From Chloroflexota bacterium (lineage in GTDB: Bacteria; Chloroflexota; Anaerolineae; Anaerolineales; Villigracilaceae), in the NCBI GenBank assembly GCA_040754535.1, contig JBFMCC010000023.1, forward strand, positions 28,570 through 92,569: a stretch of 64,000 nucleotides of DNA. The letters run 5' to 3'. Position numbers and translations under genes: made by a program. Positions within the stretch are counted from its first letter, which is position 1; every line of letters begins with the position of its first letter. The notes beneath the pieces were generated by a model that had not been told where the DNA came from, did no database searches, and worked only from the letters and a program-made list of their open reading frames with translations. Shown piece by piece: positions 4,273 through 34,978 of this stretch.

Positions 4273-4285
4273 GCCGCAGGGACGC

Positions 4286-4672: not shown

Positions 4673-4779
4673 AATCTCCCCCGCCGCGCGGGGGAGTCAC
4701 AAGAATTTCCGTCTTGCCAAAATAGAAATTGTGTTCTAAAATATAGCGGCCTGCTCAATTCGCCAAGGGAGTTGACCTT

Positions 4780-5253
4780 ATGACAGATCAATCCATCAAA
4801 CGGGAAGATTTTCTCGACAATCTCTTCAACCTTTTGGATGAGACCTTCGAGAATCATCACGGCATCTACCTCGACGAAAACAACTCGCTTCTCGATACGC
4901 TGAAAACGATCTCCGCGCAAGAGGCCTCCATCCCGGTCGGAGGCAAATGCGCCTCCCTCGCCGCGCAGGTGTCTCACGTCATCTTCTATCTCGAGGTGCT
5001 CGAACGCTATATCGTTCACCATGACACCAGTTCCGTGGATTGGGGCGAGATCTGGCGCACTGTGGAAAAGGTCACACCCGAGGAATGGGCCGCGCTGAAA
5101 GCGAAACTCGAAGCGACCTATCGCCGTATTGACAAAACGCTCCGCGAAAATACCGCGTGGAACGGAGACGCCATCAGCGGCTCGATGGCGATTGTCGTGC
5201 ATACTGCGTATCACCTGGGCGAGATCCGCCAGGCGCTGTGTATGTTGAAATAA
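4780..5253 (+). CDS. DinB/YfiT-like (DinB_2) metal-dependent hydrolase family protein
   Basis: Four-helix DinB pattern, with H..H and YHLGEIRQ near the C-terminus. Confidence 0.65.
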   Translation: MTDQSIKREDFLDNLFNLLDETFENHHGIYLDENNSLLDTLKTISAQEASIPVGGKCASLAAQVSHVIFYLEVLERYIVHHDTSSVDWGEIWRTVEKVTPEEWAALKAKLEATYRRIDKTLRENTAWNGDAISGSMAIVVHTAYHLGEIRQALCMLK

Positions 5254-5263
5254 AGGAGTTCCC

Positions 5264-5491
5264 ATGCCTGCACGTCCGCGTTACCCCATGCCCGATTTCT
5301 TCCGCGACACACTCAATGCACGCGGTTTGATGGATGCCTATCTAGCACGTCCACCTTATCAGCAGAACGATTACATTGGCTGGATCATGCGCGCCAAACA
5401 GGAAGCCACACGGCAAAAGCGATTGAATCAAATGGTGGATGAACTGGAGCGCGGCGGAGTCTACATGCGAATGAAGTGGCATCCGAAATGA
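5264..5491 (+). CDS. YdeI/OmpD-associated family protein (PF13376-like)
   Basis: PYQQNDYIGWIMRAKQEATRQKRLNQMVDELERGG, with an AAGGAG RBS. Confidence 0.65.
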   Translation: MPARPRYPMPDFFRDTLNARGLMDAYLARPPYQQNDYIGWIMRAKQEATRQKRLNQMVDELERGGVYMRMKWHPK

Positions 5492-5622
5492 AAATAATTG
5501 GCCGTCACATTGAGCGTGACGGTTAATTATTTGCGGAGGTTGATAAAGTTAAACGCAGGGAATGTGTGCTATAATCCTTAAGTCAAGTTAATACAGTATA
5601 AACTGTATTTGGGCCGTTCGTT

Positions 5623-5997
5623 CTAAAGTACATGGCGGGGGAACAATTTCGTCGGTCCATTTTCCTTGAGCCATTGGTTCTTCCGAAACAAACAAAATGC
5701 CCCGCCGTCATACCAACGGGGATGGTTATTGCTGTCGTCGGTCAGATCCTTGATTTGCATCAAAGAAGTGAAGAGCGTATTCGAGAACAGGGGATAAATT
5801 TCATGTCCAAGCGCCCATTTCACTAAAAACTCGTCCATCCGCTGTAATTGGTGTTTACAGTATCTTCTCAATCCTTGAGGGAAATCTGCCCACAGCCTCG
5901 GTTTCACGAGGTCAGGACACGGGCAGAGTTGGCCTCGGTCAAATGATTGAAAGGATACAGAATATAGGAGATTTAAAAACATGATCGCATACCTCAT
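5623..5997 (-). CDS. hypothetical protein in low-GC islet
   Basis: 124-aa ORF in the AT-richer segment upstream of the GT14 gene. No recognisable motif, so it may be spurious. Confidence 0.25.
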   Translation of the reverse strand: MRYAIMFLNLLYSVSFQSFDRGQLCPCPDLVKPRLWADFPQGLRRYCKHQLQRMDEFLVKWALGHEIYPLFSNTLFTSLMQIKDLTDDSNNHPRWYDGGAFCLFRKNQWLKENGPTKLFPRHVL

Positions 5998-6907
5998 CCT
6001 TGTACATCGCTACCCCAACCAGTTCAAAAGACTCTTCAGGGCCATCTATCATCCTGCCAACTATTACCTGATCCATGTGGATAAAAGATCGGGTGTCGGG
6101 TTGCAGAAGGAAATACAGGATTTTCTGGCAGGTTTTTCCAACGCTTCCATGCTGAAGAGTGAAAAAGCCCTTTGGGGAGGATACAGCCTAGTGAATGCTG
6201 AATTGCGCGGCATCAAGGAATTATTGAAGATGGGCTTGAAATGGGAATTCTTCATAAACCTTAGCGCCCAGGATTTCCCTCTAAAATCGCAGGCCTACAT
6301 CCATAACTTTCTTAGTCTGCACAAAGGAAAAGATTTTCTCAAAGTGGCTAATCAAAGCAAGTTCCGCCCCGATACGCTATCGCGCATAGAAAACTATGTC
6401 ACCGAGTCTGGTGATGATATCGTAAACACTCCTGTTCTTAAACGCCCATTCCTTCGAGGCGTGACTCCATATATTGGAAATCAATGGATGATCCTGAGCC
6501 GAAGGTTCTGTGAATTTGTATCCTATAGTCCTGAGGTCGAAAGGTTCAAGAAATTCTATCGGAATACCTTCATCGCGGATGAAGGATTCTTTCAAACGGT
6601 GATCATGAATACCAGTTACAAGGGAATCATCGTGAACGACGATAAAAGGACGATTGACTGGGTGCCGATGGGGACAATAAAATTGCGTCCAAGAGACTTC
6701 ACATCCAAAGATGCTACTTTCCTGATGTCAAGCCAGGATCTGTTCGCCCGCAAATTCGATGAAACTGTTGATGGGGATATCCTGGACATTTTGGAGTCGC
6801 ATCTATCGCCTCCGTCCGCCATACCGGCAAGACGATCCCATTGGCTGGATCGTACGCGCCAAACAGGAAACTTCGCGGCAGAAGCAATCGAATCCAATGC
6901 TGGATGA
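5981..6907 (+). CDS. glycosyltransferase family 14 (core-2/I-branching enzyme, PF02485)
   Basis: MIAYLILVHRYPNQFKRLFRAIYHPANYYLIHVDKRS is a GT14 N-terminal signature. GC is markedly lower (~45%) than the flanks. The last ~35 codons read out of frame through a YdeI-like remnant. Confidence 0.75.
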   Translation: MIAYLILVHRYPNQFKRLFRAIYHPANYYLIHVDKRSGVGLQKEIQDFLAGFSNASMLKSEKALWGGYSLVNAELRGIKELLKMGLKWEFFINLSAQDFPLKSQAYIHNFLSLHKGKDFLKVANQSKFRPDTLSRIENYVTESGDDIVNTPVLKRPFLRGVTPYIGNQWMILSRRFCEFVSYSPEVERFKKFYRNTFIADEGFFQTVIMNTSYKGIIVNDDKRTIDWVPMGTIKLRPRDFTSKDATFLMSSQDLFARKFDETVDGDILDILESHLSPPSAIPARRSHWLDRTRQTGNFAAEAIESNAG

Positions 6908-6956
6908 ATTGGAACGAGGTGGAGTCTATATGCGGGTGAAGTGGAATCCCAGATGA
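6800..6956 (+). pseudogene. 5'-truncated YdeI-family paralog (remnant)
   Basis: RPPYRQDDPIGWIVRAKQETSRQKQSNPMLDELERGGVYMRVKWNPR is ~75-80% nt-identical to the 3' half of 5264-5491. The N-terminal third is missing and is replaced by the GT14 3' end. Confidence 0.6.
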
Positions 6957-6992
6957 TATGCAGGGGCGAGTCTAAGACTCGCCCCTGCGGTT

Positions 6993-8255
6993 TTAATCGG
7001 CAGGCACTGCCTCCGTTTCCTCATCCGCTTCAATCGCGGACTGGGAGTTGGCGCGTCGGATGAAGAACAGCGCGGGGGTCAGGAGCAGACTCGAGGTCGC
7101 GAGCGAAGCGACCGCGGAACCGAACGCCGCGATCACCGCCACGATGGGACCTCCCAGCATTTGCCCGACGGCGTCCACCTGTCCAAACATCGAGTGGACC
7201 GTGGCGCGAACTTTGGAGTCCAGCCTCTGGTTGATCCACGCGGTCTGCAAGGGGATGTGAACGTCGCGCAAGGCATCAATGACGAGATACAAGGCAAGGC
7301 TGAGAATCAGGAACGGTGAGAGCGCAAAGCCAAGCATCGCAAGGGAAATGCCAGCGGTCACAATGAAGACCGCGCGGCCGATTGCCAACGGACTCGACGA
7401 GTCCACGCGCTTCTCCACGAAACGGACCGCGAGAATGGTGAGAATGGTGCCTGCCACGCGCAACACTGCGAAGAACGCGACCTGATTATTCCCAAAGATG
7501 ACGGGCAACTCAAACGTGTCGAGCAGGTGCTTGACCCACAGGCGGTCGAAGCCTTCGCTGTAGATGCCGAAGAACAGGCCGATGAAGACGATGTTCATCA
7601 GCCGCGGCCTGGCGCGGACCGCCTTCACGCCCTGCCTGAAGGTGTGCAACATGTGCTGCCATGTATTGCGGTCCTCGCGCGGGGTGGGATGGAATCCCGT
7701 CTCGGGCATGACAACCACGAGCGTGACGCCAATGAGCATGACGCCGATTGCGCCAACCTGAATCGGCATGGCGACGTTGCTTGCGCCGACCAGCATGGCA
7801 AGACCCATTCCGGTGAGCGAGGCGAACAAACCGATCTGCGTGGCGCGCAGGAAGAGTTTGTTGGCTTCGTCTTCGCCGATCTCGTCCGTGATCCAGGCCT
7901 GCGTCGCGCCCGATGTAAAGGTGTAACCCAAACCCCAGACGACCTGCGCCAGCAGGATCGGGATGAACGATGGAAAGAGTCCTTCGACGAGAAAGCCCAG
8001 TCCCATCAACACGTAACCGATGATGATGGACAGCCTGCGCGAGTACACGTCCGCCACGATGCCTGTCGGCACTTCGAACACGAACGCGGAGATCTCGAGC
8101 GCCGTCCCGACGAGGATGAGTTGAACAGGCGTCAACCCCGCGACGGTGGCTTCGTACAACGACGTAACAGTAAACATCATCGCAAAGAAGACCGACGCGC
8201 TGAATTCGATGAACAGGTAAACGAATCGCGGATTCAACTTCAAGCGATAAAACAT
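6993..8255 (-). CDS. MFS transporter
   Basis: 420 aa with 12 predicted TM segments and MFS-like loop motifs. Confidence 0.8.
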   Translation of the reverse strand: MFYRLKLNPRFVYLFIEFSASVFFAMMFTVTSLYEATVAGLTPVQLILVGTALEISAFVFEVPTGIVADVYSRRLSIIIGYVLMGLGFLVEGLFPSFIPILLAQVVWGLGYTFTSGATQAWITDEIGEDEANKLFLRATQIGLFASLTGMGLAMLVGASNVAMPIQVGAIGVMLIGVTLVVVMPETGFHPTPREDRNTWQHMLHTFRQGVKAVRARPRLMNIVFIGLFFGIYSEGFDRLWVKHLLDTFELPVIFGNNQVAFFAVLRVAGTILTILAVRFVEKRVDSSSPLAIGRAVFIVTAGISLAMLGFALSPFLILSLALYLVIDALRDVHIPLQTAWINQRLDSKVRATVHSMFGQVDAVGQMLGGPIVAVIAAFGSAVASLATSSLLLTPALFFIRRANSQSAIEADEETEAVPAD

Positions 8256-8290
8256 GCTTCACCTATAGTTTCCAGACTTCCGAAGTCTGA

Positions 8291-9619
8291 TTAGAATATC
8301 GGGAACACGTCGGAGAGGCGTTTTGGAAAGAGAATATCGAGCAGGACGCGGCTGGAGTTATTCATACATGTGCAATCTGCGAAACCAAACTCCAGTTCCG
8401 CGAACGAACGGTAGCCGAAGAGTAGTTGCAGGAACGTCAAGTCGGGGAAATTGGCGTGCGGTTCGTCCGTGATTTTGGGTTTCCACGTCCCGACCTTCTT
8501 CAGCCTGCCGCGCGCGAAGACCAGCCGAAGACCGCCGCGGTAAAAGGAGAGGAGCAATTCACCGCTGTATCCCACCGCGATGGATTCTGCCAGGCGTTTT
8601 TCCAGCACAGGCGCGATATGACGGATGAACCCCGCCAAGTCGGGCACGCGCAGGAACCACGCGTAGGGCTCGCGGACAGAGGGAAGCGCGTCGCCCAGCG
8701 CATCGTAAGAGGGATGTTGTGCACCAAGCATGAAGCCAAACGAGGTACGCGTCCGCTTGTCGCGTTTGGCATATTTTCCGCCCGTCTTCCACAGGTAACG
8801 CGCGACGCAGGGAGTCACGTCCAGCCATGAGACGCCGGGCGCGAGTTCGCAGCCCAGCGCGGTCAACCCGGTCATGCCGAGGAAACTGGAATGCTGGAAA
8901 TATCCCAGCCGCCTGCCGCGCGCGTCCTCGATGACGCGCAACTCGAAGCGGTTGACGTTTTTTCTGCTCTGCCCCTCCAATTCATACGCAAACACGTCCA
9001 CGCCGCGCACGCACGAGAGCATGTAACGCTTCTGCGTCCCGGCATAGACTTTGGCGATGAAGGACAGGTCGCGCTTCGTCGCGGGGCGGATGCGGTACTT
9101 CTCCTTTTCCCCCTTCTTCAAGCGCGGCACGTTCGCCTCGTGGCCGAAGCGACGGCCGACAAAATCAAGCGCCATCTCGTAACCGAACTGGCGATAGAAA
9201 TACGGAATGCCCGTAATGGCCTGCACCGGCAGGTTCCGCTCGACGCACCATTGATGGATCACCTCGAACTGGATTCGCACCAGTCCGCGCTTGCGGAACT
9301 CGGGCAGGGTGCCGACAAGTTCGGGCCGCCCGACGCCGAACGGGATTCCCTCGTAGGTCCACGTCTGCGGGATCAGATTCATCGAGGAGACGATGCGCCC
9401 GGTGGCAGCCTCCTCGACAAGGGTGAAATCGCCGGGGGTGAGAGTCGGATGAGGCCGGGTAAGCAGGTCGCGGGTCCAAGCCGCGACGCGCACTTCATCC
9501 GCCGGGTCCTCACCATGGATGCCTCCGTTGAAGTCGGCCAGCGCGTCCGCATCCGCGGACGTGGCGCGGCGCAGGATCAGGCCGTCCCCCAGATCGCGAA
9601 GGATAGGTTGTGTTGTCAC
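8291..9619 (-). CDS. GNAT family N-acetyltransferase, Eis-like multidomain (GNAT+GNAT+SCP2-like)
   Basis: 442 aa. The N-terminal GNAT fold (RRATSADADALADF...RKRGL) with a C-terminal extension resembles Eis-type architecture. Confidence 0.6.
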   Translation of the reverse strand: MTTQPILRDLGDGLILRRATSADADALADFNGGIHGEDPADEVRVAAWTRDLLTRPHPTLTPGDFTLVEEAATGRIVSSMNLIPQTWTYEGIPFGVGRPELVGTLPEFRKRGLVRIQFEVIHQWCVERNLPVQAITGIPYFYRQFGYEMALDFVGRRFGHEANVPRLKKGEKEKYRIRPATKRDLSFIAKVYAGTQKRYMLSCVRGVDVFAYELEGQSRKNVNRFELRVIEDARGRRLGYFQHSSFLGMTGLTALGCELAPGVSWLDVTPCVARYLWKTGGKYAKRDKRTRTSFGFMLGAQHPSYDALGDALPSVREPYAWFLRVPDLAGFIRHIAPVLEKRLAESIAVGYSGELLLSFYRGGLRLVFARGRLKKVGTWKPKITDEPHANFPDLTFLQLLFGYRSFAELEFGFADCTCMNNSSRVLLDILFPKRLSDVFPIF

Positions 9620-9658
9620 GGTCGTTCATCTTTCCCTGACGACCGTCACAAACAGCCG

Positions 9659-10264
9659 TCAGTTGTAATCGAGGAGTTGTTCGATTTTGACGAGAGCCTT
9701 TCCCGTCTCTTTGAATTGGATGCCGCACATGCCCAGGGCGCGCGCCGCCTCGACGTTCTCCGCGAAGTCGTCCACGAACATGGATTCTTCGGGCTTCACG
9801 TTCAGCGCCTCCAGCGCGATCCGGTAGATGCGCGCCTCGGGCTTCATCACGCCCACCTCGGCCGAGATGACCATGTGGTCGAAGGCGTCGTCGAATCCCA
9901 TGCGGACGATGTACTCGCGCAGGTCGGGAAAGGCGTTGCTGATCAGGCCGGTCCGGTAACGCGGGCGCAGGGAACGCAGGAACTCCACCAGCGGGCGGTC
10001 CACCGCATCCCCGGCGAAGAACTCATCGCGTATGGACTGCGCCTCCGCAGCCGGGAGGCCGAGCCTGCGGGCCACGGCCTCCCAGTGCTGTTCGGTGCGA
10101 ATCTCGCCAAGCGATGCCTGCCGGGCAGTCGGGCTTTCGAAGACGATCTTGACCAGGTCCTCGTACTCCAGCCCAAGCCGTTCGGCCAATCGCTGGCGCG
10201 GCGCCTGATGCTCGGTGCGGACGATCACGCCTCCAAAGTCGAAAAAGACAGCGCGAAAGTTCAC
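9659..10264 (-). CDS. HAD-IA family hydrolase
   Basis: N-terminal FFDFGGVIV (DxG motif I) and a C-terminal FVDD motif. Confidence 0.8.
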   Translation of the reverse strand: MNFRAVFFDFGGVIVRTEHQAPRQRLAERLGLEYEDLVKIVFESPTARQASLGEIRTEQHWEAVARRLGLPAAEAQSIRDEFFAGDAVDRPLVEFLRSLRPRYRTGLISNAFPDLREYIVRMGFDDAFDHMVISAEVGVMKPEARIYRIALEALNVKPEESMFVDDFAENVEAARALGMCGIQFKETGKALVKIEQLLDYN

Positions 10265-24358: not shown

Positions 24359-25732
24359 CTACGCGGGCATTTCTACCTTGGGCAGATCCTTCATGGCTTC
24401 CTTCACCGCCTCGGCGGGATACTCGTAATCCTCCAATTCACCGCGCAGGTGCTTCTCGTACGCGCCCAGGTCGAAGTGTCCGTGACCCGACAGGTTGAAC
24501 AGGATGACGCGCTTCTCGCCCTTCCTCTTGGCATCCAGCGCCTCGTCAATGACGGCGCGGATCGCGTGCGCCGACTCGGGCGCGGGGATGATGCCCTCAG
24601 CCTGGGCAAACTGCACTGCCGCCTCGAAGGTGGCCCTCTGGGGCACGGCCACGGCCTCGACCAGGCCCGCGTCCACGAACGCGGACAGGCTGGGCGCCAT
24701 GCCGTGATAGCGCAAGCCGCCGGCGTGAATCCCGGGCGGGACGAAGGAATGTCCCAGTGTGTACATCTTGGCCACCGGGCCCGTCTTGGCCGTGTCGCCG
24801 TAATCGAAGGTGTACTCGCCCTTCGTCAACGACGGCGCGGCGGTCGGCTCCACAGCCAGCAGGCGGGCGCGCTTCCCATCCTTCAGGTTTTCGCGCAGGA
24901 ACGGATAGGCCAGCCCGGCGAAGTTCGAGCCGCCGCCCACGCAACCGACGACCACATCGGGATACTCTCCCGCCATGTCCATTTGTTTGAGCGCCTCTTC
25001 GCCGATCACCGACTGGTGCATCAACACGTGGTTGAGCACCGAGCCGAGGCTGTACTTCTTGGCCCCGCCGGAGGTGGCGGCCACTTCCACCGCTTCCGAA
25101 ATGGCAATGCCCAGCGAGCCGGGGCTGTTCGGGTCCGCGGCCAGAAGCGAGCGTCCGTAGTTCGTGCGGTCGCTGGGGCTGGCAAACACCTGCGCGCCGA
25201 AGGTCTCCATTAACACGCGGCGATACGGTTTCTGCTGGTACGAGACCTTGACCATGTACACTTCGAGCGCAAGGCCGAAGAAATTGCAGGCCATGGCGAG
25301 CGCCGAGCCCCATTGCCCCGCGCCGGTTTCGGTGGTCAGCGCCTTCGTCCCGGCAATCTTGTTATAAAAGGCCTGCGGGATGGCCGTGTTCGGCTTGTGA
25401 CTGCCGGCCGGGGAAACGCCCTCGTATTTGTAGTAAATGTGGGCGGTCGTGTCCAGCGCCTTCTCCAGCCGCCGGGCGCGGATCACCGGGGTGGGACGAT
25501 AGAGCTTGTAGATCTCGCGCACCTCATCGGGAATCTGAATGTAGCGTTCCTGGCTGACCTCCTGCAGGATCAACTCCATCGGGAACAGCACGCCGAGGAA
25601 GTCGGGCGTGACCGGCTCCAGGGTATCGGGGCGCAAGACCGGGGCCGGCGCGACCGGGCTGTCGGCGTTGATGTTGTACCAGAATTTCGGAAGGTCGGCT
25701 TCGGACAAAAGAAAACGGGTTTGGTCGGACAT
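24359..25732 (-). CDS. trpB: tryptophan synthase beta chain-like, TrpB2 type (PLP-dependent)
   Basis: 457 aa. GSHKPNTAI carries the PLP-lysine. The long N-terminal extension is typical of TrpB2. Confidence 0.8.
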   Translation of the reverse strand: MSDQTRFLLSEADLPKFWYNINADSPVAPAPVLRPDTLEPVTPDFLGVLFPMELILQEVSQERYIQIPDEVREIYKLYRPTPVIRARRLEKALDTTAHIYYKYEGVSPAGSHKPNTAIPQAFYNKIAGTKALTTETGAGQWGSALAMACNFFGLALEVYMVKVSYQQKPYRRVLMETFGAQVFASPSDRTNYGRSLLAADPNSPGSLGIAISEAVEVAATSGGAKKYSLGSVLNHVLMHQSVIGEEALKQMDMAGEYPDVVVGCVGGGSNFAGLAYPFLRENLKDGKRARLLAVEPTAAPSLTKGEYTFDYGDTAKTGPVAKMYTLGHSFVPPGIHAGGLRYHGMAPSLSAFVDAGLVEAVAVPQRATFEAAVQFAQAEGIIPAPESAHAIRAVIDEALDAKRKGEKRVILFNLSGHGHFDLGAYEKHLRGELEDYEYPAEAVKEAMKDLPKVEMPA

Positions 25733-25838
25733 TTTGGTCTCCTTGTTTGATAGTTGGTGGATATTGACGGATCAATTGGCAGCGGCGAAAGCACTTCAAG
25801 GTGGATGGAACGAGGCGCGGGCAAACATCTTCTCGACT

Positions 25839-26000
25839 CCTACGGGACGAACAGCCGGGTCGCCGTTTCGTCGCCATCGCGGTCGTCCACGCGCTGTTCC
25901 GCCAGGACGACCTCAGCCGGGGCGACCCTGGTATCGTCGGCGGGATCGCATTCGCGTTCCTGGATTGGAACCCGTTTATCTTCCTGTTTTTTCGCATCCA
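25839..26000 (-). CDS. small acidic upstream ORF (53 aa) between T-box terminator and trpB2
   Basis: ATG with an AAGGAGA RBS. MDAKKQEDKRVPIQERECDPADD... shows strong GC3 bias. Confidence 0.35.
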
Positions 26001-26017
26001 TATACTTCTCCTTTCTT

Positions 26018-26160
26018 CAAAAAAACAAAAACATCCATCCCAAATCATGGGACGGACGTCGAATCCGTGGTGCCACCCAGGTTAGGCTGGAACTCACCTT
26101 ACGCAGTACCGCAAGATTTATCCTGCTCTCGATGCAACATGAATGTTGCGGTACTGGCAT
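26018..26160 (-). promoter_or_regulatory. T-box riboswitch leader (tRNA-sensing) upstream of trpB2
   Basis: T-box motif AACCUGGGUGGCACCACGG (plus-strand 26064-26077). An antiterminator (GGG / 7-nt bulge UGGCACC / ACGGA-UCCGU / CCC) can be drawn. The mutually exclusive terminator is a 12-bp stem (26030-26058) plus a U-run, and a Stem-I-like hairpin lies at 26104-26156. Confidence 0.6.
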
Positions 26161-26175
26161 AACATCGGTGATTAA

Positions 26176-26202
26176 CAAAAAATCCCGTTGTGATGCAACG
26201 GG
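26176..26202 (-). terminator. orphan intrinsic terminator on minus strand
   Basis: cccgttg-tgatg-caacggg followed (minus sense) by UUUUUU. No annotated upstream minus-strand gene. Confidence 0.4.
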
Positions 26203-26567
26203 AAGCCAGCCTCACTCTTTGTAGTCCGCTAGTCTGTTGGTCTAAGTGGTCACAGACGACTAAGGGACTTTGCCTTGATAACGGTGGCAATTCCGGCTCG
26301 GGATACTCTCGGCCTGACCATCGGACTAAGCGACTGTCCGACTACCAGACCAATTTCGCCCTGCAACTCGGAGGTCCATTCGGCGTTGTCGTCTCGGGCA
26401 GGACTTTCACCAGACCGCCTGCTCTCTGAATGGCAGGAGCTTCACCTGCCACTTGCCGTCGTACGACGCGTACTCGTCCTCGTCAGCGTTTTTGTTGGGC
26501 GGAATTATACGCCGAACTGTGGCAGTGTCAATCCTTTTGCCGCGCTCTTTTGGAAGAACCTTGTTTC

Positions 26568-26596
26568 CTTGACCGCCCCCACCCCTCACGGTACAA
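26568..26596 (+). promoter_or_regulatory. sigma70-type promoter of tRNA operon
   Basis: TTGACC, 17-nt spacer, TACAAT, ending 9 nt before the tRNA-Gly 5' end. Confidence 0.65.
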
Positions 26597-26605
26597 TGCA
26601 GGCGA

Positions 26606-26677
26606 TGCGGGAGTCGCCAAGCGGTAAGGCGTCAGCCTTCCAAGCTGATATGCGCGGGTTCGAATCCCGTCTCCCGC
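26606..26677 (+). tRNA. tRNA-Gly (anticodon UCC)
   Basis: Acceptor GCGGGAG/CTCCCGC. Anticodon loop CTTCCAA, T-loop TTCGAAT, discriminator T. CCA is not encoded. Confidence 0.85.
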
Positions 26678-26684
26678 TCTCTCT

Positions 26685-26745
26685 CTCGGTTGAAGGTTTC
26701 AGGTTGAAAGTTGAAGGAAGATTTCGACTTTCAACCTGAAACCGC
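26685..26745 (+). other. perfect 17-bp inverted repeat (hairpin) between the two tRNAs
   Basis: ggtttcaggttgaaagt ... actttcaacctgaaacc with a 15-nt loop. Confidence 0.7.
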
Positions 26746-26748
26746 CCC

Positions 26749-26821
26749 GGGCTCGTGGCGCAGTGGTTAGCGCAGGCGACTCATAATCGCTTGGTCGCAG
26801 GTTCGAATCCTGCCGGGCCCA
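26749..26821 (+). tRNA. tRNA-Met elongator type (anticodon CAU; tRNA-Ile2 not excluded)
   Basis: Acceptor GGGCTCG/CGGGCCC. Anticodon loop CTCATAA, T-loop TTCGAAT, discriminator A. No initiator features. Confidence 0.85.
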
Positions 26822-26955
26822 CTTTTGATTTAAGCAAATGCTCGCCGGCCCCCATTCAGGGGATGATATCCGAATCCCGCCGGGCCCACTTTTGATTTAA
26901 GCAAGTGCCCGCCGGCCCCCATTCAGGGGATGATATCCGAATCCTGCCCGACCCA
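26822..26955 (+). repeat. two tandem ~67-bp units each ending in a degenerate copy of the tRNA-Met 3' end (att-like scars)
   Basis: cacttttgatttaagcaa(a/g)tgc(t/c)cgccggcccccattcaggggatgatatccgaatcc(c/t)gcc(g/c)g(g/a)ccca repeats the tRNA T-arm/acceptor (ggttcgaatcctgccgggccca). Confidence 0.7.
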
Positions 26956-27047
26956 ATTGGTTTGACATGCTATTGCCGGTTTGTACAGAGCGCGGGAGCA
27001 AAAACGCGGTTCTAAGTCTAAGTTGAAATTGAATTATAAATTGATAC

Positions 27048-27076
27048 TTGACAAATGATTCACGACCTTATAGTAT
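27048..27076 (+). promoter_or_regulatory. candidate promoter for radical-SAM gene
   Basis: TTGACA with TATAGT/TAGTAT 15-17 nt downstream. Confidence 0.4.
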
Positions 27077-27185
27077 TGAACAAGTTTCATTAACTCGTGG
27101 GCAAAATTTTAGTGGTACGGGGATCATTGACTAAACCGGCGAAATCCGGTTCATGAATCTTTTCTGAATTCCATAGGAGTCTCCG

Positions 27186-28430
27186 GTGAAACCCTCATCC
27201 ATCCTTGCCGGAAAAGTATATGTCGAGGCCGTGCATGCTGCGTGTAATCGCAGGAAGCTTGACGCCCAAAAAATTGCGTCGTTTTTTGAAAACAACGGAT
27301 ACAGGATCGTAAGGGACCCGGGGGACGCAGATGTGATGTTGTTGATTACTTGCGCGGTTTCGCTCGAAAGAGAAGCCAGCTCGATAAGCCGGATCCATCA
27401 TCTCAAAAAATACGGCGGGGAGTTAATCGTAAGCGGATGCCTTCCGGCGATAAACAAGCAAAAGTTGTCGTCCGTACACAGCGGAGTCAGTATTCCAACG
27501 TCGGAACTCAGTAAACTGGACGACTATTTCCCGAATATGCAGGTCAAGTTCACAGAACTCGGAGACGCGAACCGCTACTGGCCCTCTTATGAAAAGATGT
27601 TCGGTTATCAGTTCTTCCAGGTCGCCGTTGAGAAAATAAAATCCTTCAGGAGACTGCCGCTTAATTACATTATCAAAAAAGAAATCCCGAGATTAATCAA
27701 CCGAACGATTATAAGGAGGAGTGCGGCGGAGATCGAGCCATTTTCCATCAGAATCTCCTGGGGGTGCAACCACCAATGCGCATATTGCGGTATCCGGTCT
27801 GCCGTGGGTAAATTCCACAGCAAACCGCTGGAAACCTGCCGCGCCGAATTCGCCGAGGGCCTGAACAAAGGTTACAGAGAATTCGAACTGATAGCGGACG
27901 ATGTCGGGGCCTACGGCGTTGATATTGGCAAGACATTTCCAGATCTCTTGAATTCCCTGCTCGATGTAAAGGGTAATTACACTATCCAAATCTGGAATCT
28001 CTCCCCTATATGGCTGGTCAAATACCAGGAGGCTTTTGCTCCAATCCTGAAAACGAAGAAAATCAGCGGAATCCATTATCCCGTCCAATCCGGCAGTGGA
28101 AAAATGCTTAAAGCCATGAATCGATACAGCAACGTGGAAAAGATCAGGGATTCGGTGAGGTTTTTAAGAAAGCATTTCCCTTCAATCTCAGTGACCACCG
28201 ACCTGATTGTCGGATACCCTGGAGAGACCGACGAAGACGTTACGGCAACCATCGAGTTTCTCGGCAGTGCTGATTTCGATATCGTCCATATCTTCACATA
28301 CAAGGATGTTCCGAATACGATCGCCTACGCGGCGCAGGATAAGATACCCCCCAATATTATCGAACAACGGGTCAGCAGGCTCCAGCATGGACTGGACGCA
28401 ATGAGCACAGACTATTTAGTTATTGCCTGA
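27186..28430 (+). CDS. radical SAM methylthiotransferase-like enzyme (MiaB/RimO family, no TRAM domain)
   Basis: N-terminal MTTase Cys triad (AACNRR, ITCAV, SGCLP). Radical-SAM motif ISWGCNHQCAYC. ~50% GC. The C-terminus is too short for a TRAM domain. GTG start with an AGGAGT RBS. Confidence 0.75.
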   Translation: MKPSSILAGKVYVEAVHAACNRRKLDAQKIASFFENNGYRIVRDPGDADVMLLITCAVSLEREASSISRIHHLKKYGGELIVSGCLPAINKQKLSSVHSGVSIPTSELSKLDDYFPNMQVKFTELGDANRYWPSYEKMFGYQFFQVAVEKIKSFRRLPLNYIIKKEIPRLINRTIIRRSAAEIEPFSIRISWGCNHQCAYCGIRSAVGKFHSKPLETCRAEFAEGLNKGYREFELIADDVGAYGVDIGKTFPDLLNSLLDVKGNYTIQIWNLSPIWLVKYQEAFAPILKTKKISGIHYPVQSGSGKMLKAMNRYSNVEKIRDSVRFLRKHFPSISVTTDLIVGYPGETDEDVTATIEFLGSADFDIVHIFTYKDVPNTIAYAAQDKIPPNIIEQRVSRLQHGLDAMSTDYLVIA

Positions 28431-28594
28431 TTGGACGCAAAAACATGGTCAAGCCTGCATTCAAATCAATTTCTCGGCAACAATGTAAAGTACAGAAAAG
28501 GGCGCCGCGGAGACATGTGACTGCGTGCGACGCCCACTGCCGTGGCGGGCTGGTACCACATAGTCACCCATAGTGGAAAGACGTAAAAAGCGAC

Positions 28595-29518
28595 ATGATG
28601 AAAAATATCATTCCCCCGAGCGACCAGCCATCGGCATATAACATGTATGAGAACGTGGAATACTCGGAATATTGGAATGTCGCATATAGGAGGAAGCTCA
28701 ACGAACTGGAACATGCCATTGTTCAAGAATTATTGCCTGCGGCAGGCAACCGCATTCTCGATCTGGGTTGCGGCTATGGCAGGATGGCCGATTGCTATCT
28801 TGGTCGCTTCCGGGATGTCGTGATGTTCGACGGCTCCTTATCTCTGCTACGAACCGCGCAAAAAGTGACCGACGGGAAAGCGTATTATGTAGTGGGAGAT
28901 ATTAACTACCTCCCCTTTCATCCCGCCACATTTGACAACATACTGATGGTCCTAGTGCTTCACCATCTGACCGAACCGGCACGATGTTTGGATAATATTG
29001 GCAAAGTGATCTGTAAGGGCGGACGCTTTGTGATGACTTACAGGAACAAAAGAAACGCTCTATGGATGGCAAAATACCTTGTGGGGGCATTGCATGGGAA
29101 CCCGTTCACCAAAGAACCGCTCCTCCTGGAGGCCAACATATTCAATCATCATCCTGCTTACATAGCGGAGTTGATGACCGCCGCTGGCTTTGAAAGCCTT
29201 ACATATCGCGGGGCAGGCGTTTTCGACAAGGTCGAAAAATCACTGGGCAGGTTCGCCAAATGGGTGCCGCGCGGTGACTTTTGGACGCCCCTGTTCGGCA
29301 AATTATTCCTGGCCCCGTGGATATTCTGCCGGGGAATCTCCCAGAACAGGGAAACTCTCAGATCTTCCGAGAATGTGGAAAGCCTGCTGGCATGCCCGCG
29401 TTGCAAGTCGGAACTGGAACGTGAAGCAAGCGGGGTCAAATGCATGCGTTGCCGCACTAGGTATCCAAACCTCGATGGGATTATCGACATGAGAATCGAA
29501 CCACAGGCTACTTCATAG
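28595..29518 (+). CDS. class I SAM-dependent methyltransferase with C-terminal Trm112-like zinc ribbon
   Basis: LDLGCGYGRM is motif I. The C-terminal LACPRCKSELE...KCMRCRTRYPNLDGIIDM is a Trm112p-like zinc ribbon. Confidence 0.75.
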   Translation: MMKNIIPPSDQPSAYNMYENVEYSEYWNVAYRRKLNELEHAIVQELLPAAGNRILDLGCGYGRMADCYLGRFRDVVMFDGSLSLLRTAQKVTDGKAYYVVGDINYLPFHPATFDNILMVLVLHHLTEPARCLDNIGKVICKGGRFVMTYRNKRNALWMAKYLVGALHGNPFTKEPLLLEANIFNHHPAYIAELMTAAGFESLTYRGAGVFDKVEKSLGRFAKWVPRGDFWTPLFGKLFLAPWIFCRGISQNRETLRSSENVESLLACPRCKSELEREASGVKCMRCRTRYPNLDGIIDMRIEPQATS

Positions 29519-29715
29519 TTTCATCATCAGCCATGTGCAAAAACCAGTGGGCCACGCATAAGAGGTGTGATGGGGAATGGTATTCCGCATATCTGTAATT
29601 CAACAGGATTCCATCCCGCTCCACAAAGCTAATCACTTACATCTGACCACTATCACGGCTTCTTGAAGGATACGAAAACTGCCATTAAAATCAAATTTTT
29701 AAATTGAAATTTAAC

Positions 29716-29743
29716 TTGACTTTTTTTTTGTAATCAGTATAAT
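29716..29743 (+). promoter_or_regulatory. near-consensus sigma70 promoter (TTGACT, 16-nt spacer, TATAAT)
   Basis: In an AT-rich intergenic region, ~260 nt upstream of the 30001 start. Confidence 0.55.
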
Positions 29744-30000
29744 GTTATTTGCGCTTTTCAAATTTGTTAAGTGGCCTTGAAACAATGAATTGCCCACATT
29801 ATCGGGCTCACACGGTTCAAGATATAAGTGACGTTCATCCATACAGATCTAGACAAGTATTTTGAAAAAGGCTATTGTTTGAGAAGCGATCAGTAAACCG
29901 CCTACAGAGTTAGCCATTACCTCCGCCTTTACACAGTCCAACTCAAATAAGGCGAGTCGTCAAATAAAAAATCCATCTAATTTCACCCGCGGGAGGCACA

Positions 30001-33000
30001 ATGTTCAAGACTATTTCGTTTTTGACCCAGAAGATGGACAACACTATTCAGCGTGTCGCGTTCGGCCCCGTGATCATGGTCCTGGTCCTCCTTTTTGCAG
30101 CCGTTGGGGTACCGACTCAGGATGTTGCGGCACAGGCACCATCCAACAAACCGTTGTTGATCGCCGCCTTTGTGCCCGAAAAGGTGGTATTGATATCACC
30201 GGAAGGAAATATCGGCAACAACTACAATCCTACTTATACATGGAATGCACTGGTTGATGCAGATGAATATACTCTTGGAGTCGTTGGCCCGAACGGGGAA
30301 GATTTGATCTATCAAACGTATGACCAGGCAGATATATGCACCGCCACGATTTGCTCGGTCACCCATCCGCTGACTTTGTCCGGGGGATCGCATACCTGGT
30401 GGGTGAGGGGGAGAAACGTGGACGGGCTCGGTCCGTGGAGCGATCCGATGGTTTTCAGCATTGCGCCCGATACCACCATCACCAGCAACCCGCCGGACCC
30501 GAGTTTCAGCAACAGCGCCACATTCGCTTTCGAAAGCGATGATCCCTCCGCGACATTCGAATGCCAATTGGATGGAGGCGGCTTCAGCGCCTGCACCAGC
30601 CCAATGGATTACACAGGCCTAAGTGACAGCAGTCACACCTTTGAGGTGCGCGCTGTGGAAAGTCATGGCACTCCCGACCCCACGCCGGCCTCCTACACGT
30701 GGCTGGTTGATGTCCCCGTCTGCTACGCCCTGACGCTTAGCCATACCGGCAATGGAAGCGATCCATCAGCCGATCCCGCCAACTCACCGGGCTGTTCGGC
30801 CGGTCAATTCGTTGAAGGCGCGGTCGTGGATCTAACCGCGGCGCCGAATGCGGGCTGGCAGGTCAGTAGTTGGACCGGCACGAACGATAATAACAGCACT
30901 GCCACCAGCAACACCGTCACCATGCCCGCCGGCGCACATGCCGCGAGCGTCAATTACACGCAGATCGAATACACCCTGACGGTGAATACTGTGGGAAATG
31001 GCACGGTGACCAGAGATCCCGACCAGGCCATCTATCACTACGGCGATGTCGTGCAGTTGACCGCGACACCTGCCATCGGCTGGCTCTTCTCCGCCTGGAG
31101 CGGCAGCCTGACCAGCACGGCCAACCCGGTCAACATCACCATTGACGCGAACGAAACCGTTACCGCCACGTTCACGCAGATCGAATACACCCTGACGGTG
31201 AATACTGTGGGAAATGGCACGGTGACAAGAGATCCCGACCAGGCTACCTATCACTACGGCGATGTCGTGCAGTTGACCGCGGCACCTGCCGCCGGCTCGT
31301 CGTTCTCCGGCTGGAGCGGTGACCTGACCGGCTCCGCCAACCCGGTCAATATCACCATTGATGGCAACAAGTCCGTCACCGCCACATTCACCAATATCGG
31401 ATACACCCTGACAGTGAACATCGTCGGCGACGGTACCGTAAGCAGGAATCCTGACCAGGCCTTCTACACCTACGGCGATGTGGTCGAACTGACCGCCGCG
31501 CCGATGCCCGGCTGGACCTTCGCAGGCTGGTCCGGCGGGCTTTCCGGGAACGCAAATCCCGAATCCATCGTAATTGATGAAGATGAAACGGTTACGGCGC
31601 AGTTCCTGACCCTGCCTTTGCTCACCTCACCGCTCAATGGAACGACGCTGCTTTACAACCAGCCGACTTTTGACTGGGAGGATGTAAACGGAGCAATTAA
31701 CTACAGCATTCAGGTTTCCAGGTATAGCAATTTCAGATTGCTCTTGGTGAATGCAAGGGTTACGACCTCGACCTATACCCTCCTCAGGGCACTCCCAGTC
31801 AATACTGTGCTCTACTGGCGTGTCAAAGCCAACGGTGTCGCTTTCAACCTATGGTCCGAAGTACGCACCCTCACTTCCGCCAATCCGCCTTCGCTGCCGC
31901 TTCTGCGTTCGCCAGCCAACAATGCCCTGGTAACGGATTACACGCCGCGCCTCGATTGGGCCGACGTCAGACTCCCGGCAGGGACGACCTTCGATAAATA
32001 CGAACTTCAGATGGCAACGGACAGCGCGTTCACCTCCCCGACCAGTGTGGAGATTGGCGGCCCGGAGACGAACTCCGAGTACACACCCGGCGTCGACCTT
32101 CTTCCCAACACCAGGTATTACTGGCGCGTACGTGCATACAACACAGACGGACAATATAGCGCCTGGTCCACGAGCCGTTCCTTCCGCACGGCCGTCCTGC
32201 CGCCGACGCTGCTGGCCCCATCGGACGCTGAGATACTGCTCAACAAACGTCCGACCTTCGATTGGGATGATGTGGCGGGCGCGACCTCCTATACCATCCA
32301 GATCTCCACCGCCCAAAACTTCATGCCCGTCAAGATCAATGCCACCGTGACCACCTCGACGTTCACGCCGACGATTAACCTGATGGCTGACACCCTGTAC
32401 TACTGGAGAGTGCGGACCAACGCCGTCAACGGGCCGAGCGTGTTTTCCGAAGTCTGGTCCTTCACGACAGGCAACCCGCCCTCCACGCCTGCCCTGGTTG
32501 CTCCGGCCAATAACGCCCTGCTCACCGATTACACGCCGTTGTTGAACTGGTCCAATTCCACCCTGCCGGCCGGGACGACCTTCGATCATTACCAGTTGCA
32601 GATCGCAACGGACGCCGCCTTCGCAAGCCTGGTCGTGGATGCCAACGTGGGCGCGGGAGACATTACCGCCTCGGAGTACAGCCCGACGACCGACCTGGCC
32701 GCCAACACCAAGTTCTACTGGCGCGTGAGAGCCGTGAACAGCGACCTGGAATACAGCGCCTGGTCCGTCAGCCGTTACTTCCGTACGGTCCTCCTGCCGC
32801 CGACCCTGGTTACCCCGGCCGATCTGGACATCCTCTCCGGCCCGCTCCCGACGTTCGACTGGGAGGATGTGACCGGCGCATCCAGTTACACCATCCAGGT
32901 GTCGAGGAACCCCACCTTCACCCAGTTGGTGGTAAACAGGACCGTTGCAACCTCCACGTACACTCCCGTTTCCAACCTGCCCCTTAACATCACTCTCTAC

Positions 33001-33072
33001 TGGCGGGTCAGGACGAACGGCCCCAACGGGCCAAGCCTGTGGTCGGAAGTGAGGTCGTTCACGCTTCAATAA
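30001..33072 (+). CDS. large secreted repeat protein: InlB B-repeat (Listeria/Bacteroides repeat) domains plus ~6 FN3-like repeats
   Basis: GGGAGG RBS and an N-terminal signal/TM. Four YTLTVNTVGNGTV...WSG...ANPVNITID...VTATF units. Six ~95-aa repeats end YYWRVRA...WS..R.F.T. Confidence 0.8.
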   Translation: MFKTISFLTQKMDNTIQRVAFGPVIMVLVLLFAAVGVPTQDVAAQAPSNKPLLIAAFVPEKVVLISPEGNIGNNYNPTYTWNALVDADEYTLGVVGPNGEDLIYQTYDQADICTATICSVTHPLTLSGGSHTWWVRGRNVDGLGPWSDPMVFSIAPDTTITSNPPDPSFSNSATFAFESDDPSATFECQLDGGGFSACTSPMDYTGLSDSSHTFEVRAVESHGTPDPTPASYTWLVDVPVCYALTLSHTGNGSDPSADPANSPGCSAGQFVEGAVVDLTAAPNAGWQVSSWTGTNDNNSTATSNTVTMPAGAHAASVNYTQIEYTLTVNTVGNGTVTRDPDQAIYHYGDVVQLTATPAIGWLFSAWSGSLTSTANPVNITIDANETVTATFTQIEYTLTVNTVGNGTVTRDPDQATYHYGDVVQLTAAPAAGSSFSGWSGDLTGSANPVNITIDGNKSVTATFTNIGYTLTVNIVGDGTVSRNPDQAFYTYGDVVELTAAPMPGWTFAGWSGGLSGNANPESIVIDEDETVTAQFLTLPLLTSPLNGTTLLYNQPTFDWEDVNGAINYSIQVSRYSNFRLLLVNARVTTSTYTLLRALPVNTVLYWRVKANGVAFNLWSEVRTLTSANPPSLPLLRSPANNALVTDYTPRLDWADVRLPAGTTFDKYELQMATDSAFTSPTSVEIGGPETNSEYTPGVDLLPNTRYYWRVRAYNTDGQYSAWSTSRSFRTAVLPPTLLAPSDAEILLNKRPTFDWDDVAGATSYTIQISTAQNFMPVKINATVTTSTFTPTINLMADTLYYWRVRTNAVNGPSVFSEVWSFTTGNPPSTPALVAPANNALLTDYTPLLNWSNSTLPAGTTFDHYQLQIATDAAFASLVVDANVGAGDITASEYSPTTDLAANTKFYWRVRAVNSDLEYSAWSVSRYFRTVLLPPTLVTPADLDILSGPLPTFDWEDVTGASSYTIQVSRNPTFTQLVVNRTVATSTYTPVSNLPLNITLYWRVRTNGPNGPSLWSEVRSFTLQ
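30961..31392 (+). repeat. two near-identical tandem 216-bp intragenic repeats (72-aa InlB B-repeat unit)
   Basis: 30961-31176 vs 31177-31392 differ at only a handful of positions. Confidence 0.85.
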
Positions 33073-33208
33073 GTTGACTGGCAAACTCCATGCAGGGCCG
33101 CGTTTTATGAGGACGCGGCCCTGTCATGGAAAAAACCGTCCCATGGCGGATGGCAACCGCCGACAGAAGAGAGCGCCCCGAAGAGCAAACCCGGCGCTCG
33201 ACATCGAA

Positions 33209-33238
33209 ACGCCGCGCTGAAATGCGGCGTTTTGTGTT
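33209..33238 (+). terminator. intrinsic terminator downstream of large repeat protein
   Basis: acgccgc-gctgaaat-gcggcgt + tttgtgtt. An additional GC hairpin at 33094-33122 has no U-tract. Confidence 0.6.
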
Positions 33239-33271
33239 ATTAAAGGCAAATCCCGCCCACAGGATCCAACC

Positions 33272-33973
33272 ATGAACAACTATATTGCGCTTGTGATCAC
33301 GTTCCTCGTTGCCGTCGCCTTCCTGCGCCTGATGGACTTTATCGCCCAGCGCGGCTGGATCGAAAGCAGGATGAGCCGTAAACTCATCCACATCGGTACC
33401 GGGCCGATCTTCGTACTTTGCTGGCTGATGTTCTCCGACGTTCAAAACGGACGCTGGCTGGCCGCGTTGGTCCCGCTTCTCATTACGGCACAGTTCGTTT
33501 TAGTCGGCACAGGGGTCATTAAAGACGAGGCGGCTGTGAAAGCCATGTCGCGCACGGGCGACCGCCGCGAGATCCTGCGCGGACCGTTGTTCTACGGCAT
33601 CGCCTTCGTCGCATTGACGTTGATCTACTGGAAGGATTCCCTGATCGGCATCCCGGCGTTGATGATCATGTGCGGCGGCGACGGGATCGCGGATATTGTC
33701 GGCCGCCGCGTTAATTCTCCCAGATTGCCCTGGTCGCCTGAAAAAAGCCTGCTGGGCTCGGTCAGCGTGTTCGTTGGCGGATGGCTGTTGACCATGTTCA
33801 TCTTCGCCGTCTACGTGTGGATGGGAACCTTCAGCGGACCGATCACTCGATTTCTACTGCCCGTCACCGGGATCGCTCTGGGCGCGACCCTGGTCGAGTC
33901 CCTGCCCTTCCGGGATGTGGACAACCTGACCGTTACCATCGCCGCCGCCCTGCTGGGTCACTTGCTATTTTAG
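33272..33973 (+). CDS. CTP-dependent polyprenol/phytol/dolichol kinase family membrane protein
   Basis: Multi-TM. C-terminal MCGGDGIADIVGRR...SLLGS resembles the VTE5/Sec59 GDGxAD motif. Confidence 0.6.
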   Translation: MNNYIALVITFLVAVAFLRLMDFIAQRGWIESRMSRKLIHIGTGPIFVLCWLMFSDVQNGRWLAALVPLLITAQFVLVGTGVIKDEAAVKAMSRTGDRREILRGPLFYGIAFVALTLIYWKDSLIGIPALMIMCGGDGIADIVGRRVNSPRLPWSPEKSLLGSVSVFVGGWLLTMFIFAVYVWMGTFSGPITRFLLPVTGIALGATLVESLPFRDVDNLTVTIAAALLGHLLF

Positions 33974-34978
33974 GACCGGCTTCAACGCCTCGGCCAGGAT
34001 CTCCGTAAACACAATCCTGCCGGCCTCGTTCAGGTGCAAATTGTCTGCGAACAGGGCCGGGACGAGGCGTTCGTCGCGCGAAAAATCGAGGAACGGAATC
34101 CCGCGTTCGTCCAGGTAGGAAGCGAGGTCGTCCATGTAGGTCTTGAGGCCGGGCGGTTCGGAGTCAAATCGCAGGGTGCGGGCGCGCACGAAGATCAGTT
34201 GAATGCCGTTCTCGCGGCACAGGCGGACGATCTCCGGCAGAAAGGAATCATCCACACTGGCGTCGAAATCGAGGGCGCGCGGCGTGTAAAGATAGGCTTC
34301 CGCGGACGCGACCGCCTCCGCCAGCAGATTCGCCTCGAGATTGGCGGCCCGGAACACGGCGTCCATCGCGCCGTTGGTGCAGGCGGCGTCGCATTGCAGG
34401 AACAGACGGGGCGGGGTGTAACGAATGCCGGCGTCCAGCGATTTGCGCAAATCCAGGCGGGCGCCGTAGACCGGCAGGTAGGCTTCGGCCAGTTTTTCGA
34501 GGGGATTCATCCGGTTGACATAGGCGCGTTCGATGAACACGAGGTCGTCCGGCGCGGCGTACTCGTCAATGGGGATGAAGTAACTGCCGTGCACGCGATA
34601 GCCCGGAAGGGTGAGCATGGTGTCGCGGAACAGCATGATGAGCGCCCGCGGCTTACGCTCCGCTTCGACGATATTGTTTTCCAATACCAAATACCACAGC
34701 GCAGACGCCGACCCGCTTGCCCTGACGCTGTATATTTCCACTCCCAGAGCCGTGGACAGCACGGCCGCGTCCACGTCGGCCTGAAGAAGCGAATCTCCCA
34801 GCATCACGATCTGGGTGGGGGTCTGTTCGAGGACTCTCCTGACAGTCTGGCGGACGAACGCGTCCGGTTGCAGGCCCAGGGCGCGGGGGTAGCCGGGCTG
34901 GTAACGCGCTTGAACGTAAACGGACAGCCCGCCCGACAGGATCAGCAGAAACAGTACGTATCGGCGGAATGCTTTCAT
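33965..34978 (-). CDS. SGNH/DltD- or AlgJ/AlgX-like O-acyl transfer accessory protein, membrane-anchored
   Basis: N-terminal TM, with LGDS near the N-terminus. Paralog of 37149-38168. Adjacent to the MBOAT gene. Confidence 0.55.
   Translation of the reverse strand: MKAFRRYVLFLLILSGGLSVYVQARYQPGYPRALGLQPDAFVRQTVRRVLEQTPTQIVMLGDSLLQADVDAAVLSTALGVEIYSVRASGSASALWYLVLENNIVEAERKPRALIMLFRDTMLTLPGYRVHGSYFIPIDEYAAPDDLVFIERAYVNRMNPLEKLAEAYLPVYGARLDLRKSLDAGIRYTPPRLFLQCDAACTNGAMDAVFRAANLEANLLAEAVASAEAYLYTPRALDFDASVDDSFLPEIVRLCRENGIQLIFVRARTLRFDSEPPGLKTYMDDLASYLDERGIPFLDFSRDERLVPALFADNLHLNEAGRIVFTEILAEALKPVLK

Follow-up and report, generated by a model that had tools for sequence, protein, structure and literature searches.

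The closest described counterpart of the repeats considered here lies behind the tyrT-tyrV tRNA genes of Escherichia coli. In strain K-12, tyrV is followed by a 178-bp unit in 3.1 copies of 95% identity, which starts in the T-loop and is annotated as rttR/tpr (L185, NC_000913.3, positions 1286700–1287330). Each unit includes a piece of pseudo variable arm and T-stem and a hairpin-rich insert before the 3' end. Within the 178-bp repeat, CTTCGACCAAGGTTCGA stands about 66 nt of hairpin-rich sequence away from AATCCTTCCCCCACCACCA, an arrangement that mirrors the split T-loop of the Anaerolineae units described below. The repeat region lies within the tRNA transcription unit, and to our knowledge the purpose of its architecture has never been settled.

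Partial tRNA copies beside tRNA genes are routinely read as island boundaries, and tRNA fragments left by integration are common (PMC9897764). In the islands and prophages of tyrosine integrases, the real cases enclose kilobases of DNA with an integrase gene between attL and attR. The T-loop is reportedly a sublocation used by one class of tRNA-targeting integrases. Another arrangement is that of the CIMEs, which lie beside ICEs in Streptococcus thermophilus and form tandem accretion arrays, att-flanked and without a recombinase, whose members are of kilobase scale and mutually different. The locus described here shows that the inference from partial tRNA copies to an island boundary can fail.

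The window, a stretch of 64,000 nt from a metagenome-assembled genome of the Anaerolineales (Chloroflexota, class Anaerolineae), carries two tRNA genes in a row on the forward strand. The first gene of the operon is tRNA-Gly(TCC) (26607–26679; ARAGORN and Rfam), and 5' of it a consensus scan gave a promoter-like site on the same strand, TTGACC-17-TACAAT (26569–26597), which is likely the promoter of the tRNA-Gly/tRNA-Met operon and would also transcribe the repeats. The second is tRNA-Met(CAT), which extends from 26749 to 26821 or 26822 (ARAGORN and Rfam) and does not encode CCA. With a G1-C72 pair, and without the three G-C pairs that mark initiator anticodon stems, it is an elongator-type gene. 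The same Gly-Met pair occurs in 46 related loci. The Gly-Met spacer holds one long hairpin (26695–26743, forward strand) with 21-nt arms that are 95% complementary, and the 41–90-nt spacers of the 46 related loci (within L110–L179) fold alike, with a median MFE of −31 kcal/mol, while their sequences fall into at least five unalignable types; a structure that is kept while its sequence is replaced suggests a processing signal. Another side observation concerns the reverse strand, where a T-box-leader-like match (26045–26495) lies 5' of the PALP gene, which encodes a pyridoxal-phosphate enzyme, and reaches 66.6 bits where the gathering score is 93 (E = 4e-13); it covers 451 nt against a 219-nt model and would need a large insert. 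A perfect consensus promoter, TTGACA-16-TATAAT, stands on the same strand as this match (26531–26504).

The last 18 nt of tRNA-Met, from the T-loop to the discriminator base (CGAATCCTGCCGGGCCCA, 26804–26821), are copy 0 of the repeat. At 26804–26955, Tandem Repeats Finder detected 2.3 copies of a 67-bp period (92% matches, score 269), so that the tandem unit of about 67 bp which an earlier note had placed directly 3' of tRNA-Met was borne out. CGAATCCTGCCGGGCCCA is matched at 26804 without mismatch (within tRNA-Met), at 26871 with one mismatch and at 26938 with two, and the progressively degenerate tRNA 3' ends of that note are thus present as well, the strings it quoted lying at 26870–26888 and 26937–26955. 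No further match was found across the 64-kb window, and three matches arose in 0 of 100 shuffles. Each unit consists of a trailer of about 22 nt, the 25-nt motif N, two bases and a pseudo tRNA 3' end. Both units lie on the forward strand. Unit 1 (26822–26888) has its trailer at 26822–26843, motif N at 26844–26868 and the pseudo 3' end at 26871–26888; in unit 2 (26889–26955) the same parts lie at 26889–26910, 26911–26935 and 26938–26955. Motif N reads GCCGGCCCCC-ATTCA-GGGG-ATGATA and contains a 4-bp hairpin, in unit 1 between CCCC (26850–26853) and GGGG (26859–26862).

Unit 2 departs from unit 1 at 3 of 67 positions. The 48-nt stretch between the cores is present twice with two mismatches (the spacers measure 48–49 nt), and a third copy of it was absent from the 64-kb window. 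In a repeat search, 26804–26870 and 26871–26937 were 96% identical; this identity extends over the non-tRNA parts, which argues that the second copy is a tandem duplication and not the product of a second integration. A possible further trailer copy in decay follows at 26956–26979 (forward strand), where ATTGGTTTGACATGCTATTGCCGG resembles CTTTTGATTTAAGCAAATGCTCGCCGG by eye only. The tRNA-linked segment ends at a promoter-like site found by consensus scan, TTGACA-17-TAGTAT (27048–27076, forward strand), which is assigned to a radical SAM gene. Four aligned congeneric loci show no variation in the region of the first hexamer (CTTGACAAA), and a matching second hexamer TATAAT is present in three congeners (L186, L187 and L191).

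The tandem 67-bp array after tRNA-Met is confirmed as a real feature. It is base-for-base identical in the independent MAG L001 (GCA_049324815.1), whose flanks are only 81–99% identical, and a Logan contig (L002) ends within the array, a break that is expected of a genuine repeat. Over positions 17200–38213, the comparison with L001 is a mosaic, with 100% identity at about 25000–33000 (tRNAs, repeats and cassette) and 81–99% on either side, which suggests a recent recombinational exchange of this segment.

Congeneric loci were retrieved with the gene at 33272–33973 (forward strand), the conserved anchor on the right-hand side, which different sources name as polyprenol/diacylglycerol kinase-like, as phytol kinase or as phosphatidate cytidylyltransferase. 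The PALP gene (24359–25732) was also tried as an anchor and gave no synteny, since none of its 80 genome loci carried the tRNA pair or another gene of the window except one partial case. Four congeners (L186, L187, L188 and L191) have an ortholog of the 33272 gene at 91–95% identity. The full order of PALP, tRNA-Gly, tRNA-Met, units, radical SAM gene, methyltransferase gene, gene of a surface protein of about 1020 aa and anchor is seen in L186 and L188; L187 and L191, whose contigs start no earlier than tRNA-Met, follow this order from the radical SAM gene onward. With the same cassette in place, the unit count is two in the window and L001, one in L186, one in L188, at least one in L191 (the contig starts within a unit) and zero in L187. 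Compared with L186, the last of these loci is shorter by exactly 67 bp, and otherwise the two agree at 99.99% over 12.2 kb. The two may come from one sample, and the zero-copy state may be an assembly collapse, which is possible because the difference spans a 40-nt exact repeat, longer than k = 31. Copy number therefore differs between close relatives with collinear flanks, as in a variable-number tandem repeat, with zero to two units in the congeners (L187 with the assembly caveat) and three in L128 and L152.

The cassette downstream of the array lies outside the repeat. On the forward strand it encodes a MiaB/RimO-like radical SAM protein (27186–28430), a methyltransferase (28595–29518) and a surface protein of 1023 aa with InlB-B and Ig-like repeats (30001–33072). 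The gene of the surface protein contains three 216-bp tandem repeats and repeats of about 590 bp (30941–31588 and 31663–33063), which are InlB-B/Ig-like domain repeats. The earlier note had taken the adjacent 6 kb to be foreign in composition; this held for about 3.5 kb (27000–30500), to which a low GC content of 46–52% is confined, but not for the remainder up to 33272, which at 56–61% is like the flanks. It was right that no integrase stands beside the array: searches of the cassette genes with Pfam and NCBIfam gave neither an integrase nor another mobility gene, and the integrase of the positive control L144 was detected. Its proposal that the copies mark a decayed or integrase-less island was not supported, as no copy of the core was found at 26956–34000 even at word size 6 (blastn-short), nor 3' of the units across the cassette in the four congeners.

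The segment between tRNA-Met and the 33272 gene differs between lineages. In L129, the ortholog (77% identity) begins 81 nt after tRNA-Met, and both the units and the cassette are absent; the direct tRNA-anchor junction which the earlier note had proposed to look for thus exists in one relative, and the DNA between the two genes is variable. Elsewhere this slot holds 3.6 kb with two membrane proteins, one of them GT87-like (L128), 3.9 kb (L195), about 6 kb (L193), or 8 kb with glycosyltransferase and sugar-modification genes (L196). Across the Anaerolineae, the slot is hypervariable, from 81 nt to 8 kb, and its cargo consists mostly of membrane, glycosyltransferase and sugar-modification genes. 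It resembles a cell-envelope island of the replacement type that has no att sites. In L128, a weak core-like match (GGTTCTAATCCT) stands 190 nt ahead of the ortholog of the 33272 gene; it was rejected as a distal core, being at chance level (E = 5) and within an ORF. Where filled and empty sites are compared, exactly the unit is missing in L122 (compared with L155) and in L187 (compared with L186). L187, whose zero count may be due to assembly, retains the cassette, and the boundaries of the cassette are not at the repeats. The cassette is fixed in the genus, the number of units varies and a distal core is lacking; therefore, the units are not the att sites of the cassette.

A metagenome scan with the 3' half of tRNA-Met as query yielded 76 loci. 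At least nine further lineages of the Anaerolineae have one to three homologous units behind the same tRNA-Met. The family unit consists of a trailer, TTGGTCGCAsG, CCCC-N5-GGG(G)-ATGATAT and TCGAATCCTGCCGGGCCCA, and the variable trailer takes up 5–28 nt after the tRNA. Three copies with a 64-nt period are present in L128 and L152, which are independent contigs; five loci have one copy (L131, L149, L168, L155 and L166), three have units cut by contig ends (L111, L113 and L142), five have decayed pieces (L159, L137, L162, L135 and L145), and in most of the 76 loci the units are absent. All intact motif-core junctions of this set lie less than 200 nt from tRNA-Met, and none was found in 1.23 Mb of related DNA without tRNA-Met. 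A dispersed repeat of the REP or MITE kind was considered and rejected, as neither the window nor the 1.23 Mb of related loci holds another copy. The spacer, the motif-core junction and the whole array had no match in the viral, phage and plasmid sets searched (IMG/VR, INPHARED and PLSDB).

Units are 90–96% identical between lineages whose Gly-Met spacers cannot be aligned. For L131 and L149, the units are 96% identical over 55 nt, and both the Gly-Met spacers and the downstream DNA are unalignable. Comparisons of syntenic relatives show that units come and go without any change to the genes downstream. In group B (L155, L122, L145, L137 and L159), the terminator and the downstream gene are common to all five loci; L155 has a unit, L122 is precisely empty, with a trailer (CATTCCTC) equal to the sequence after the unit of L155, and the other three represent differing partial deletions of the unit. 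In group A, the unit is present in L149 and L168 and absent from L134 and L171, and only its left part, folded back as a terminator-like hairpin, is left in L135; the downstream gene is common to all five. In both groups a canonical terminator stands 3' of the unit. L131 likewise has a unit, and in L148, L170 and L172 the same trailer directly follows the tRNA.

Within the genus, motif N is 88–100% identical, the pseudo-core 79–89% and the trailer 42–67%. The family alignment has 11 invariant columns, 8 of which fall in the CC.C strand of the hairpin and in GGGAT. Either motif N is under selection or the module has been spread by recombination through the tRNA homology at both of its ends. The search for an RNA structure gave little: single units fold no better than shuffled sequences (z of +0.2 to +1.3), RNAalifold returned only the invariant 3-bp hairpin with no covariation (covariation term −0.08), a possible GGGAU/AUCCY helix is pairable in 97% of cases with neither covariation nor double changes, and Rfam had no match to the unit. 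A small ORF was also considered and discarded by eye, since the ATG in GGGGATGATAT opens frames of 10–37 codons whose stop is not conserved. The unit was rejected as an intrinsic terminator too, because only the tRNA T-arm with CTTTTG scores as one in the window and the canonical terminator of the relatives follows the unit. In the window no canonical terminator was found after the array, and the next signal is the promoter-like site at 27048–27076. Judged from this layout, the units are probably transcribed as a 3' trailer of the tRNA, as the next promoter comes only after the array and, in relatives, so does the operon terminator.

The tRNA-Met gene is nevertheless used by integrating elements in related organisms. 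In L144, it is followed by the genes of a 331-aa tyrosine integrase, a Rep-like protein and an HTH protein, with a 34-nt direct repeat at 8.66 kb; the element spans 1059–9718 of that locus, its integrase gene lies at 1441–2436 on the minus strand, and the repeat starts in the anticodon stem. In L151, L133 and L153, repeats lie 2.5–4.5 kb away. These cases make tRNA-Met a genuine integration hot spot, and the genuine att repeats found there start in the anticodon stem or loop, measure at least 34 nt and are without motif N. An arm motif, GTAGCCGAACTGGATTTGAGCC...TGAATACGC, is conserved and occurs repeatedly with all copies oriented alike, as many as five of them in L133. The P-arm motif of the real elements had no match in the viral, phage and plasmid search. 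Two side observations belong here. Arrays of the arm motif (GTAGCCGAACTGGATTTGAGCC) that are attR-like stand 3' of the tRNA in L133, L151, L153, L179 and L182/L184, and many pseudo 3' halves in the set formed by these loci and L144 carry hairpin inserts of 21–88 nt placed exactly in the T-loop (GGTT^CGAATCC).

The bare 18-nt core does match viral sequences, namely phage tRNA-Met genes or half-tRNA sites resembling attP. An encoded CCA follows in all but three of these matches and the CTTTTG trailer in none, which suggests other hosts and makes them irrelevant to the locus in the window. Nine IMG/VR sequences (L083, L085, L094, L098, L099, L107, L108, L090 and L103) show half a tRNA-Met, from the anticodon loop to CCA, after non-tRNA sequence, and look like attP-type sites in phages of other hosts.

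We regard the stretch as probably a two-copy tandem array of a tRNA-Met trailer module, a member of a copy-variable Anaerolineae family that does not delimit the cassette. The earlier note had instead seen att-type scars of successive integrations and excisions at tRNA-Met, marking the adjacent DNA as a decayed or integrase-less island. Several facts agree with that reading: the repeats are direct, follow the tRNA orientation and copy the tRNA 3' part with the left edge of the duplicated segment in the T-loop; tRNA-Met is a real integration site in L144, L151, L133 and L153; half-tRNA-Met sites like attP occur in viral contigs; the native trailer stands after the last core when filled and empty loci are compared, which is the geometry of integration; and the segment up to the 33272 gene is variable among lineages. 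So much of the note's reading stands: each copy duplicates part of the tRNA 3' end, and the tRNA is an integration target in relatives. They do not, however, bound the cassette, and the second is a tandem duplicate of the first. The 48–49 nt between the cores, with 2 nt different, speak for one duplication and not for two integrations, and since copy number varies among relatives, the two stacked copies are poorly described as repeated integration and excision. Neither the window nor the four congeners have a core at or near the far end of the cassette, which itself lacks integrase and mobile-element genes, and the cargo of the slot in other lineages consists of glycosyltransferase and membrane genes instead of mobile-element genes. 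The genuine att repeats at this tRNA are longer, start elsewhere in the gene and are free of the motif, and the motif-core junction occurs in no phage, plasmid or viral contig searched. Finally, units are present where no island exists, a finding the note itself had named as speaking against att scars, and the terminator and gene that come next are the same in syntenic relatives whether or not they have the unit. For the cassette, the att-scar reading is thus largely refuted, and we hold it to be improbable. It is more improbable still, to the point of being hardly credible, that the array is an assembly artefact in which a spurious duplication arose from joined reads of strain variants. The sequence does come from a metagenome assembly, a Logan contig ends within the array, and the assemblies L186 and L187 differ by exactly one unit; yet the copies differ at 3 of 67 positions, which does not fit a simple k-mer loop, the identical array was recovered in the independent MAG L001, and two independent contigs (L128 and L152) carry a homologous three-copy array.

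Another explanation gives the unit a function of its own, as a selected cis-acting element of the tRNA operon whose copy number is incidental, either an RNA that combines a mimic of the tRNA 3' end with a hairpin for precursor processing, stability or folding, or a protein-binding DNA. It would account for the conservation of motif N above both of its flanks within the genus, for the concentration of 8 of the 11 invariant family columns in the motif, and for the fixed position and orientation relative to the tRNA, 5' of the operon terminator; the E. coli analogue, moreover, is annotated as a small RNA, RttR. Against it stand the results on structure (a hairpin of only 3 bp from RNAalifold, a GGGAU/AUCCY pairing that never covaries, fold z-scores of +0.2 to +1.3), the lack of an Rfam match, the absence of the unit from most of the 76 loci with visible decay in group B, and the lack of an ORF conserved by eye, with stops at varying distances after the ATG of the motif. 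We consider such an element a possible but rather unlikely explanation. Slightly more doubtful in our eyes, though clearly above the two readings just set aside, is a broader proposal. The module might be an undescribed functional element of Anaerolineae tRNA-Gly/tRNA-Met operons, where a co-transcribed mimic of the tRNA end would act in precursor processing or sequester a factor that binds tRNA ends, or else a self-propagating hitchhiker between lineages; in that case it and the E. coli tyrT repeats would form a recurrent class of T-loop-anchored tRNA trailer repeats. Recombination could spread such a hitchhiker because it is flanked by homology to the tRNA, given by the tRNA gene itself on its left and by the 18-nt core on its right.

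Under the preferred account of a copy-variable trailer module, the following course of events is proposed. The module is tied to the tRNA-Gly/tRNA-Met operon of the Anaerolineae; some lineages have one to three copies of it, others retain it in decay, and most lack it. It would have originated when part of the tRNA 3' end, from a break in the T-loop, was duplicated, and the source of this duplication could be an attR-type junction left by an integrase that crosses over in the T-loop, or a local duplication; by descent, then, the module may go back to either. Local duplication alone fails to explain a near-identical motif in lineages with unrelated native trailers, such as L131 and L149, and the conservation of motif N argues against a purely neutral remnant. 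Copy number would change by unequal recombination or replication slippage between direct repeats of 18–40 bp, made up of the tRNA 3' end and trailer, and the second copy in the window would have arisen in this manner. The array would be transcribed as the 3' trailer of the tRNA, as with the 178-bp repeats after E. coli tyrV. The cassette of radical SAM, methyltransferase and surface-protein genes occupies a separate, hypervariable slot for cell-envelope genes.

Set beside the described systems, the array comes nearest to the tyrT-tyrV repeats. In both, the array begins in the T-loop of the last tRNA of an operon, each unit ends in the tRNA 3' end (the last 19 nt in E. coli) and restarts with the trailer, and neither an island nor an integrase is involved. 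The unit lengths differ (178 bp in E. coli, 67 bp in the window), as do the phyla; the E. coli tRNA encodes CCA whereas the tRNA-Met of the window does not; and E. coli has an annotated processed RNA and a small ORF, while the Anaerolineae units are known from sequence alone. By eye, there is only a loose resemblance beyond the generic T-loop (CCC-ATGC-GGGG...ATGA...TTCGA), and we take the two as analogous, not homologous. With the attL and attR of tyrosine-integrase islands and prophages such as the element in L144, the array shares the direct repeat of the tRNA 3' end and the native trailer after the last copy, but its repeats enclose 48–49 nt, the two enclosed stretches duplicate one another, and no second repeat accompanies the cassette. 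Like CIMEs, it lines up several att-like copies at a single tRNA or target gene, separated by segments that lack an integrase; here, however, these segments are 48–49 nt long and near-identical. Minisatellite-type VNTRs, too, consist of head-to-tail copies of tens of bp whose number differs in close relatives, but the array of the window is anchored to a tRNA gene, and one segment of its repeat has been conserved between distant lineages.

The feature is of an ordinary kind and represents a new family of modest interest, in which the conserved 25-nt motif N is the one point worth following. For annotation, a label of pseudo-tRNA or att site should be given to such units only after relatives have been checked. 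For the biology of tRNA operons, the array adds a second and phylogenetically remote case of a tyrT-like architecture, and the natural variants of the Anaerolineae module, intact, amplified, decayed or absent, provide comparative material on the question of whether trailer repeats act.
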